From: Planctomycetota bacterium | GTDB taxonomy: Bacteria > Planctomycetota > UBA1135 > UBA2386 | Reading direction: 5' to 3' | Assembly (NCBI GenBank): GCA_049889335.1 | Contig: JBMHDP010000068.1 | Coordinates: 1-51,108 of the forward strand | DNA: 51,108 nucleotides | In this document: positions 15,202 through 21,105 of the stretch, piece after piece | How positions within the stretch are numbered: position 1 is the stretch's first letter | Layout of the letters: every line of letters starts with the position of its first letter | Made by a program: the position numbers and the translations under genes | Notes under the pieces: model-generated | What the model saw: the letters and a program-made list of their open reading frames with translations, nothing else | The model's database searches: none | What the model was told of the DNA's origin: nothing

Positions 15202-18200
15202 TTGGCCACCAACTCGAAAAAGACCCCCAGCAAGAGCGCGGGCGCGAAGCGCCCCGGCAGCCGCAAGAACCCGGCGGAGCGCGCGGCGTCGGCTCAACAG
15301 ATCGTGGTCCGCGGCGCTCGGGAGCACAACCTGAAGAACGTCGACCTGCAGTTCCCGCGGGACACGCTGACGACGTTCACCGGCGTGTCGGGCTCCGGCA
15401 AGTCGAGCCTCGCCTACCACACGATCTACCAGGAGGGACAGCGGCGCTTCCTGGAGAGCCTGAGCTCGTATGCGCGCCAGTTCCTCGGGCGGATGGAGAA
15501 GCCCAAGGTCGACCAGGTCGAGGGGCTGTCGCCGACCGTCTCGATCGACCAGAAGTCGACCAGCCACTCGGCGCGGTCGACGGTCGGGACGTTGACCGAG
15601 GTGATGGACTTCCTGCGGCTGTGCTGGTCGCGGCTCGGGACCCCGCGCTGTCCGGAGTGCGACGCCGAGATCGAGGCGTGGTCTCCCGACCGCATCGTCG
15701 ACGCCGTGCTCGCCGACCACGACGGGCAGGCCGCGATGGTGCTCGCGCCCGTCGTGCGAGAGCGCAAGGGCGAGTACCGTAAGGAGCTCGCTGAGTGGGC
15801 GCAGAAGGGGTTCGTGCGCGCCCGGGTCGACGGGGAGATCCGGCGCCTCGACGAGGACATCCAGCTCGAGCGCTACGTCTACCACACCATCGAGCTGGTC
15901 GTGGACCGCTTGACGATCCGCGGCGACGCCCGCTCGCGGGTCGCCGACGCCGTCGAGCAGGCCGTGCAGCTCGGCGGTGGTCTCTGCACGCTGGTCGACA
16001 GCGCCGGCGCGAACGACCGGTTGTTCTCGACGCAGCGCGCCTGTCCGAACGGCCACGGCGCGCTGCCGGAGATGGAGCCGCGGCTGTTCTCGTTCAACAG
16101 CCCGCTGGGTGCGTGCCAGGAGTGCGACGGGATCGGGCAGACCTTCGGCTTCGCGCCGGAGCTGCTGGTCCGCGACCCGGCCGCGTCGATCCGGGCAGGC
16201 GCGCTGCACGTGTTCAACGACGAGGGGCGCCTCGTCTACGGACGGCTGACCGTGGAGCACCTGCAGGCCGTGCTCGAGGCGTTCGGCGGCGACGTCGACA
16301 CGCCGTGGCGCAGGCTGAGCAAGCGGGCGCAGCGCGTCGTGCTCCACGGCTCGGGGCGCAAGACCTTCGAGTTCAAGTGGCAGCGCAAGACGGCGAACTT
16401 CGCCACGTCGGGCCGGGAGAAGATCGCGTTCCCGGGCGTGCTCGGGCACCTGGAGCGCGTCTATCGGCCCTCCCGCGCGCGACACCTCGACCGGTTCCGG
16501 GCCGCGACCGGCTGCCCTGCGTGCGACGGCAGCCGGCTGTCGCCCGCTGCGCGCGCGGTGCGCTTCACCGGCCGCGCCCTGCCCGAGGTGCTGGAGTTGT
16601 CGGTAGACGACGCGCTCACCTGGGTCCGCGGCGTCGAGCTCACGGGGAACGAGCTCCGCATCGGCCGCGACATCCTCAAGGAGATCGAACGCCGGCTGAC
16701 CTTCCTGGCCGACGTCGGTTTGGGCTACCTCACGCTCGCGCGCCGGGCCTCGACCCTCTCGGGCGGCGAGTCCCAGCGGATCCGTCTGGCGGCGCAGGTC
16801 GGCGCGGGTCTCCGCGGCATCCTCTACGTGCTCGACGAGCCGAGCATCGGTCTGCACGCGCGTGACCAACAGCGGCTGCTGCGCACGCTGGAGGCGCTCC
16901 GCGACCGCGGCAACACGGTCGTCGTGGTCGAGCACGACGAAGAGACCATGGAGCGCAGCGACTTCCTCGTCGACGTGGGCCCCGCCGCGGGCGCCCACGG
17001 CGGCGAAGTGGTGTCCGCCGGCACGCCCGAGCAGGTCAAGGCCGACGAGGGTTCGATGACCGGGCAGTACCTGCGGGGCGCGCTGCAGGTCCCGGTGCGC
17101 AGCGAACGCCGGCATGCCGAGCTGGGCCGCCTCGGAGTCCGCGGCGCGCGACACCACAACCTCCGCGGCCTCGACGTCGACCTGCCGCTGGGGCGGTTCG
17201 TCGCGGTCACCGGCGTCTCGGGTTCCGGCAAGTCGACGCTCGTGCACCACGTCCTGGTGCCGACGGTGCGGGACCGCCTCGCGGGCAAGGGCGTCGCGCC
17301 GGCGCACTGCGACGCCGTCGAGGGCATCGAGCTGCTCGACAAGCTGGTCGAGATCGACCAGAAGCCGATCGGCCGGACTCCCCGGAGCAACCCCGCGACC
17401 TACACCGACGTGTGGACGCACGTCCGCGACCTCTTCGCGATGCTGCCGGAGTCGCGGCTGCGCGAGTACAAGAAGGGCAGGTTCTCCTTCAACGTGGCCG
17501 GCGGCCGCTGTGAGGAGTGCCAGGGGGCCGGCGTGAAGACGCTGGAGATGAACTTCCTCGCGCCCGTGGAGGTCGTCTGCGACGAGTGCGCGGGGGCCCG
17601 CTTCCACGCCGACACGCTCGCCATCCGCTTCAAGGACAAGAACGTGTCCGACGTCCTCGAGATGACCGTCGAGGAGGCGGCGGCGTTCTTCGAGGACCTG
17701 CCGAAGATCGCCCGCGGCCTCGAGGCGCTGCGGGACGTCGGCCTGGGCTACCTCAAGCTCGGGCAGCCGTCGACGACCCTGTCCGGCGGCGAGGCGCAGC
17801 GCGTCAAGCTCGCGACCGAGCTGCAGCGCCCCGCGACCGGCAAGACGCTCTACATCCTCGACGAGCCGACGACGGGGCTGCACTTCCAAGACGTCGCCCG
17901 GCTGCTCGACGCGCTGCAGCGGCTGGTCGACGCAGGCAACAGCGTGATCGTGATCGAGCACAACCTCGACGTCCTGCGCGCGGCCGACACGCTCGTCGAC
18001 CTGGGCCCGGAGGGCGGGGTCGGCGGCGGTCGCCTCATCGCGACGGGCACCCCCGAAGAGGTCGCGGACATCGAGGGCTCGCACACGGGCGCGGCGCTGC
18101 GCGCGCTGGGGCTCGGCAAGAAGCGGCGCCGCAAGCGCGCCGGCGGCGCGCGGGCGAAGGGGGCCCGGGCGGTCGCGCCCGAGGCGATCTCGGTGCGCGG

Positions 18201-21105: not shown

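Follow-up and report, generated by a model that had tools for sequence, protein, structure and literature searches.

The DNA considered here (the window) is a whole contig of 51,108 bp, with a G+C content of about 72%, from the metagenome-assembled genome (MAG) of an uncultured member of the Planctomycetota, and the gene of interest on it is a double-length uvrA that is followed by genes for an XPB-type helicase and a p52-like protein (Table 1). UvrA works as a symmetric pair of identical protomers, which together have four ATPase sites and two domains that bind UvrB. In the window, one open reading frame (ORF) contains two match stretches apiece for the NCBIfam UvrA equivalogs NF001503 and TIGR00630. 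The first-pass annotation, which was made from the sequence alone, had taken this gene to be a genuine fusion in which two UvrA units retain all four ATP-binding cassette (ABC) modules intact, and the fusion is borne out by the alignment of both units, from end to end, with the Geobacillus UvrA structure 2r6f. A class I UvrA has one unit per polypeptide and forms a homodimer of ~940-amino-acid chains; since two units here share one chain of 1967 amino acids, the protein is a variant and not a plain member of that class. On the evidence set out below, it is likely to be a natural single-chain UvrA dimer, in which a flexible basic stretch of about 27 residues links two complete class I units, which would form an intramolecular pseudo-dimer that loads UvrB.

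Table 1. Coordinates of the fused uvrA gene, of the parts of its product and of the neighbouring features in the window (NBD, nucleotide-binding domain; aa, amino acids).
Feature	Position	Strand	Support or remark
Small divergent ORF	14736-15266	-	upstream of uvrA; without Pfam match
Fused double uvrA ORF, 1967 aa plus stop, TTG start	15202..21105	+	single ORF
N-terminal basic tail (aa 1-33)	15202..15300	+	exists only with the TTG start
UvrA unit 1, complete class I UvrA (aa 34-968)	15301..18105	+	2r6f_A residues 17-965, 1054.6 bits, E=0
Walker A, NBD-I of unit 1, GVSGSGKS	15382..15405	+	invariant 114/115 (one gap)
Unit 1 zinc module 1 and UvrB-binding domain (aa 150-285)	15649..16056	+	PF17760 122.1 bits, E 1.2e-35 (cut-off 23.3 bits)
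Unit 1 zinc module 2 and insertion (DNA-binding) domain (aa 305-441)	16114..16524	+	PF17755 64.4 bits (cut-off 23.2 bits); C305, C308, C438, C441 invariant
Walker A, NBD-II of unit 1, GVSGSGKS	17212..17235	+	invariant 115/115
Inter-unit linker (aa 969-995, LGLGKKRRRKRAGGARAKGARAVAPEA)	18106..18186	+	basic, poorly conserved sequence
UvrA unit 2, complete class I-type UvrA, faster evolving (aa 996-1940)	18187..21021	+	2r6f_A residues 23-958, 877.9 bits, E 8e-263
Walker A, NBD-I of unit 2, GPSGSGKS	18268..18291	+	G, S, G, S, G, K invariant 115/115
Unit 2 zinc module 1 and UvrB-binding domain (aa 1112-1257)	18535..18972	+	PF17760 38.5 bits, E 1.2e-9 (cut-off 23.3 bits)
Unit 2 zinc module 2 and insertion domain (aa 1278-1422)	19033..19467	+	PF17755 52.6 bits (cut-off 23.2 bits); four Cys invariant
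Walker A, NBD-II of unit 2, GVSGSGKS	20149..20172	+	motif, alignment of 115
C-terminal basic tail (aa 1941-1967)	21022..21102	+	family median 27 aa, charge +5
XPB-type helicase	21102..22817	+	NCBIfam NF045503 'DNA repair helicase XPB' 800.2 bits, cut-off 610
p52/Tfb2-like XPB partner, 619 aa	22814..24673	+	PF13625 aa 535-618, E 9e-12
Terminator-like hairpin with T-rich tail	24710-24735	+	37 nt past the p52-like stop

The integrity of the long reading frame is supported in several ways. No internal stop interrupts its 1967 continuous codons, and the G+C content at third codon positions (GC3) is 0.91-0.99 in all 300-nt blocks; GC3 is uniformly high in one frame, the junction included, and a hidden frameshift is absent. 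More than 110 full-length homologues of 1850-2050 amino acids, from independent assemblies that include contigs of 6.6, 8.1 and 3.4 Mb, are fused in the same way, with the linker in frame, and one called protein from a 6.59-Mb contig (P0026) covers the unit junction. When 1.84 billion representatives of 50%-identity clusters were scanned with HMMER, the best 150 matches were nearly all double-length proteins, and 106 of these proved to have four Walker A motifs. The frameshift or stop at the junction that the first-pass annotation had named as the way in which a fusion could turn out to be illusory was thus not found, and the idea that the true genome holds two adjacent uvrA genes with a stop or frameshift between them, for which no support was seen, is extremely improbable. 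An interruption does occur in an orthologous uvrA on the 6.59-Mb contig (locus L005, positions 6001-11820; JBKAGP010000001.1); it sits near the 5' end, away from the junction, and probably reflects either an indel error or a frameshift that makes the gene a pseudogene. Read from the first start at that locus, the ORF has only 376 amino acids, and the start of P0026 (1799 amino acids) corresponds to roughly residue 244 in the window protein.

The gene call at NCBI (P0001) is 1933 amino acids long and begins at a GTG, codon 35, and the N-terminal tail is dropped from it. The TTG at 15202 is favoured here as the start codon, because it is the sole alternative in-frame start, is preceded by a GGTGAGGGG stretch and yields an N-terminus (MATNS...) that is common to the homologues P0002 and P0034. 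A small ORF diverges from this end of the gene, with a 122-amino-acid gene in the same place in a related locus (L001); taken from its first start codon, the small ORF would overlap the start of uvrA, and its translation therefore probably begins at an internal Met.

That the two halves are colinear, as the first-pass annotation had it, was confirmed with BLASTP, which aligned residues 30-968 with residues 992-1940 over 964 columns at 47% identity. Unit 1 is 52% and unit 2 is 48% identical to Geobacillus UvrA, both in end-to-end alignments, and the class II structures 2vf7 and 7sh1 score far lower and match in two pieces, with 615 and 475 bits for unit 1. Each unit has a first and a second nucleotide-binding domain (NBD-I and NBD-II), three zinc modules, a UvrB-binding domain and an insertion domain. 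The motif counts given at first reading are exact, with four each of Walker A (G(V/P)SGSGKS at residues 61, 671, 1023 and 1650), the ABC signature (SGGE(S/A)QR at 520, 861, 1501 and 1833), Walker B (LDEP(S/T)xGLH at 544, 886, 1525 and 1858) and the H-loop ((V/I)EH(D/N/H) at 576, 918, 1557 and 1890). Conservation was assessed in an alignment of 115 sequences, the window protein and 114 full-length homologues no shorter than 1850 amino acids, in which all four sets of these motifs, as well as the six sets of zinc ligands, three per unit, are invariant or nearly so. Against the curated UvrA models, both units pass TIGR00630 (1257.3 bits for unit 1 and 1044.5 bits for unit 2, cut-off 729.8); unit 1 (1310.9 bits) and the whole chain also pass NF001503, and unit 2 passes TIGR00630 only.

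The feature that sets the character of the protein is the UvrB-binding domain. Inserts of 131 amino acids (C150-C281) in unit 1 and 141 amino acids (C1112-C1253) in unit 2 lie between the sites of zinc module 1, and had been supposed to be homologous to that domain, a supposition on which the first interpretation of the protein was staked. It stands: both inserts match PF17760, and since the match of unit 2 is the weaker of the two, its domain was modelled with AlphaFold2 (AF2) from an alignment of 33 sequences. The model has a predicted local distance difference test (pLDDT) score of 95.2, and Foldseek matched it to 3uwx_A (E 4.5e-9), 4dfc_B (template modelling (TM) score to the target 0.81), 9gy7_A and 3fpn_A (TM 0.78), so that the resemblance to isolated UvrB-binding domains reaches TM scores of 0.78-0.81. 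The residues of UvrA that contact UvrB and Mfd are R216 and E222 (PMC3025350), and their equivalents are R246 and E252 in unit 1 and R1210 and E1216 in unit 2. Both arginines are kept in all 115 sequences of the alignment, E252 in 108 and E1216 in 79. With the UvrB-binding domain kept in both halves, the protein could in principle work with UvrB and Mfd. The two copies have not been held equally tightly, however; mean pairwise identity within the family is 41.7% for this domain in unit 2 versus 59.0% in unit 1. It is the only domain of unit 2 that is clearly less conserved than its unit 1 counterpart, the others differing by no more than about 6 points, and it is also the domain most diverged relative to that counterpart.

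The first zinc module was described correctly in the first-pass annotation as far as the motifs go, namely CPEC...CPNGH in unit 1 and CPEH...CQHC in unit 2; the suggestion that these are complementary changes does not survive, as both patterns are ordinary variation among single UvrAs. The CxxH...CxxC of unit 2 is the canonical pattern of Geobacillus UvrA (CPTH...CPYC), and single UvrAs vary too, with CxxC...CxxC in C. thermocellum and the Chloroflexi, CxxC...CxxH in Clostridia and no first pair in the Bacteroidales. The CxxC...CxxGH of unit 1 is a variant conserved in the family, found in 99 of 115 homologues.

For the C. thermocellum UvrA, the residues of the dimer interface and the wedge are R54, Y55, S58, Y62, Q65, F66, G80-I85, L507, M508 and V510 (PMC12796330). 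The equivalents of these, together with the Phe of the zinc-3 hairpin, are kept in both units, and a few differences at the interface have become fixed between unit 1 and unit 2, with Q65 represented by Q and R, M508 by R and V, and S82 by S and G, respectively. The presumed equivalents of the DNA-binding arginines R712, R722, R724 and R730 of E. coli UvrA, their positions having been mapped from the E. coli sequence, are kept as well. Both units thus retain all the elements that ATP hydrolysis, dimer contact, DNA wedging, DNA binding and contact with UvrB or Mfd are known to require, and with these conserved across a large family, both remain under purifying selection for the whole set of UvrA activities.

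The conserved interface residues are consistent with pairing of the two units within one chain. They suit equally well a pairing between chains, like unit with like (N and N', C and C') or unlike (N and C'), which would give an equivalent of four protomers that could bridge two segments of DNA or polymerise, and a linker as short as 21 amino acids, as in some homologues, might not suffice for pairing within the chain. Nevertheless, tethered dimer partners are at a very high local concentration and normally pair intramolecularly, and the linker, which is never absent, has been kept flexible and variable. The fixed differences at Q65, M508 and S82 are of the sort that a heterotypic N:C interface permits, even if homotypic pairs are compatible with them too. 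Pairing between chains is, on balance, unlikely.

The linker itself is always present among the 115 homologues, at 21-56 amino acids (median 27), is usually basic and has a median net charge of +7. In the window protein, the net charge is +7 over residues 1-35, +11 over residues 961-1000 and +7 over the last 32 residues, so the report of a basic N-terminal tail, linker and C-terminal tail holds for this protein, and for the linker and C-tail it holds across the family. It does not extend to the N-tail, which has a family median of 7 amino acids and a charge of 0, long basic N-tails being confined to close relatives. The basic C-tail of the fused family was not seen in single UvrAs, whose tails, in the 11 of 14 proteins where they could be located, are 0-17 amino acids long with charges of -1 to +2. 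Members of the family with a lower G+C content carry Lys instead of Arg, so the charge is no artefact of base composition. It is plausible that non-specific affinity for DNA is raised by the basic linker and the C-tail.

The fused form is by no means a peculiarity of one contig. Its architecture was scored by counting the residues of each unit that align with the UvrB-binding and insertion domains of Geobacillus UvrA, and the 106 double-length representatives were divided in this way into 31 in which both units are complete, as in the window, 37 in which the C unit is without the insertion domain, 20 (of about 1600-1750 amino acids) in which the UvrB-binding domain is missing from both units, and 18 of other types. 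The doubles derived from class I thus mostly keep both UvrB-binding domains. The spacing of Walker A motifs had been used to classify units as "I" or "II", with the result that the C unit often seemed to be without a UvrB-binding domain; this was wrong, and the domain-aligned scoring shows loss of the insertion domain instead. Double-length proteins in which both halves have the class I-type spacing of Walker A motifs are found in the Planctomycetota, Chloroflexota, Chlamydiales and Kiritimatiellia, in a Myxococcota MAG, in "bacterium HR30" and in Heimdallarchaeota, and all are annotated plainly as "UvrA". The last group is represented by P0133 and its cluster members, from MAGs of these Asgard archaea, in which the double-length UvrA has 1916 amino acids, class I-type spacing of the Walker A motifs in each half and 42% identity to half 1 of the window protein; the fused form therefore occurs, or was transferred, outside the Bacteria. 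Two short contigs, from a Luminiphilus sp. MAG (L015) and a Brocadiaceae MAG (L013), carry fused uvrA genes 84-91% identical to that of the window; their taxa are unlike those of the other close relatives, and they are probably mis-binned contigs of Planctomycetota.

No discussion of a natural fused UvrA was found in the open-access literature searched. Genome annotation already records UvrAs of double length, and the value of the present one is as a natural symmetry-broken UvrA. In its domains, each unit has the same full set as the protomer of the class I homodimers of Geobacillus (2R6F/3UWX), Thermotoga (3PIH), M. tuberculosis (3ZQJ) and C. thermocellum (9GXK), and the window protein differs from these in having two units per chain, the basic linker and the basic C-tail. 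Since its units are only 47% identical, any dimer-like assembly that it forms would be asymmetric.

Among known double-length proteins, the chlamydial one is the obvious comparison, as it is likewise about twice the normal length of a UvrA. In C. trachomatis, ct333 is presumably the only uvrA. It is double-length, at 5,361 bp and 1,786 amino acids, a length that passed without comment where it was reported (PMC6686042). Long UvrAs have a single curated model, NF001885/PRK00635, with 1809 positions and a cut-off of 3054 bits, and the window protein, at 1270.6 bits, is not a member; five other double-length representatives fail it too, with 1126-1341 bits. Both units of the window protein match the first half of NF001885 better than the second, which suggests that the second half of the chlamydial protein is much more diverged. 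An environmental Chlamydiales MAG encodes a double-length UvrA (P0135) of 1885 amino acids that has four Walker A motifs, spaced as in class I in each half.

A second comparison is with the duplicated class II UvrAs, reportedly named 'class III' by Goosen and Moolenaar in 2008, which also have tandem UvrA units in one chain. They are without the UvrB-binding domain in both units, whereas the window protein has it in both; the residues aligned to Geobacillus 124-249 number 126 and 136 in the two window units and 9 and 0 in a duplicated class II example (P0164). The first-pass annotation had set this protein apart from duplicated UvrAs that have lost the domain, and it was right on both counts, as the type without the domain is also real (the 20 representatives above). 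Class II UvrAs in general are without the UvrB-binding domain and independent of UvrB (PMC3167621, PMC9328131). Those of known kind, such as D. radiodurans UvrA2 (2VF7), Ecm16 (7SH1) and DrrC, share the ABC and zinc core of the window units, and the absence that defines them is not seen here. A more distant parallel is offered by full ABC proteins such as ABCB1, in which fused halves that are otherwise dimeric are allowed to diverge asymmetrically. This is an analogy only, with no homology implied beyond the ABC fold: ABCB1 and its like are transporters with two NBDs in total, the window chain has four (two per unit), and among the structure matches of unit 1 they appeared only as weak matches to an NBD.

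The duplication had been judged old in the first-pass annotation, and the trees concur. Those of the N units and of the C units are congruent, with 100% bootstrap support for the core clades, from which it follows that the fusion predates the diversification of the family. The C units have evolved faster, with a mean distance of 0.66 among them versus 0.53 among the N units. In the core, UvrB-binding and insertion domains alike, the N unit is closer to 14 single UvrAs from other phyla than to its own C unit, which indicates that the duplication or fusion is very old; in 200 neighbour-joining bootstraps, the N and C units never formed one clade, and the support for the deep nodes was 33-38%. 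A comparison with Geobacillus alone had made the variable domains of the halves appear mutually closest, as expected from a duplication within the lineage, and this was overturned once the 14 single UvrAs were included. The origin was either an old tandem duplication followed by fast evolution of the C unit or the joining of paralogues that were already old.

If the protein is a single-chain dimer, its working can be pictured from that of the ordinary UvrA. The chain would double back so that the ATP-binding-I domains of the two units meet in a head-to-head intramolecular pseudo-dimer with four ATPase sites, which would scan DNA, sense lesions and use its two UvrB-binding domains to load UvrB, as happens with UvrA2 in UvrA2B2. 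Tethering would make the assembly independent of protein concentration and leave the halves free to diverge, the N unit staying near the canonical UvrA and the C unit, its UvrB-binding domain most of all, evolving faster. Three observations weigh against this picture. Unit 2 falls under the stricter NCBIfam cut-off for UvrA (NF001503, 1075.8 versus 1147 bits), its UvrB-contacting Glu is replaced by Ala in 20 of 115 homologues, and neither uvrB, uvrC, mfd nor a single canonical uvrA is present within the 51-kb window.

The neighbours of uvrA are housekeeping genes, with a conserved synteny of uvrA, thiE, a thiL-like gene, tsaE and a sigma factor gene. Next to it in the window stands the gene for the XPB-type helicase, with the Pfam domains ERCC3_RAD25_C, Helicase_C_3 and ResIII, and then that for the 619-amino-acid p52-like partner. 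The stop codon of uvrA overlaps the GTG start of the XPB gene in a GTGA (21102-21105), and the stop of the XPB gene overlaps the GTG start of the partner gene in the same way (22814-22817), an arrangement that, to judge from the nucleotide sequence, couples the translation of all three genes, those for UvrA, XPB and the p52-like partner. The sole sequence match of the partner is its C-terminal domain PF13625, which resembles the XPB N-terminal domain. In an AF2 model of it (pLDDT 61), the top 19 Foldseek matches are p52/Tfb2 chains of transcription factor IIH (TFIIH), followed by XPB N-terminal domains, and the helicase and its partner may constitute a bacterial XPB/p52-like module. Among related loci, XPB follows uvrA in 12, with the partner gene next in 10 of these. 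In one related MAG (GCA_020638735.1; L001, positions 13892-17641), XPB and its partner are called as one ORF of 1249 amino acids. The partners and function of bacterial XPB were described as unknown in papers of 2012 and 2026.

Downstream of the partner gene, the terminator-like hairpin could close a uvrA/XPB/partner transcription unit; five such sites were found in the region versus 2.5 expected, which is weak evidence. A promoter scan upstream of uvrA found nothing. The PADLOC profile mad3, from the MADS defence system, matches NBD-II of unit 1 (17140-18105) with 315 bits, implying that this MADS component is a UvrA-like ABC protein. A reading of the uvrA locus as a defence system was rejected, as the mad3 and mad8 matches to NBD-II reflect a common UvrA-like ABC fold and nothing else there is defence-like.

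The coupling to XPB bears on a different view of the gene, in which it would be an accessory paralogue beside a canonical uvrA elsewhere in the genome, serving in tolerance of drug or toxin adducts (cf. Ecm16 and DrrC) or as a sensor dedicated to XPB and p52 instead of UvrB. UvrA paralogues with roles outside nucleotide excision repair are known (PMC9328131), the coupling of uvrA to XPB and the p52-like protein is present in the clade with its order kept in related loci, and the view of the genome is confined to the 51-kb contig. Yet, in contrast to class II proteins, neither unit has lost the UvrB-binding domain or its contact residues, and unit 1 passes the cut-offs of both curated UvrA equivalogs. 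On the 8-Mb contig of a homologue (P0073, locus L002), moreover, the XPB pair is missing and thiE lies directly after uvrA with the rest of the synteny kept, which makes the fused architecture independent of XPB. The search also returned no clearly complete single UvrA labelled Planctomycetota, P0267 being a fragment at a contig end, though this is weak evidence. An accessory role is accordingly unlikely. A further proposal, that the protein is an obligately asymmetric sensor in which the N unit is the canonical lesion sensor and UvrB loader and the faster-evolving C unit, in which the UvrB-binding domain is the most diverged part, has another partner or a regulatory role, working directly with the coupled XPB and p52-like partner in this clade of Planctomycetota, is a long shot on present evidence. 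Were it true, there would be a bacterial pathway that joins a UvrA-type sensor to a DNA-opening module of the TFIIH type.

The likely reading, that of a single-chain dimer, has consequences for the study of UvrA at large. Since the protomers of the homodimer are identical, the roles of individual sites in UvrA and the need for both UvrB-loading arms are hard to assign. A tethered UvrA with halves that are 47% identical breaks this symmetry, as a mutation in one gene can be aimed at any individual Walker A lysine, UvrB-binding domain or wedge, and with 31 of 106 double-length representatives having the fused full architecture, such proteins are not rare. The conserved uvrA/XPB/p52-like operon, for its part, is a concrete lead on the role of bacterial XPB.

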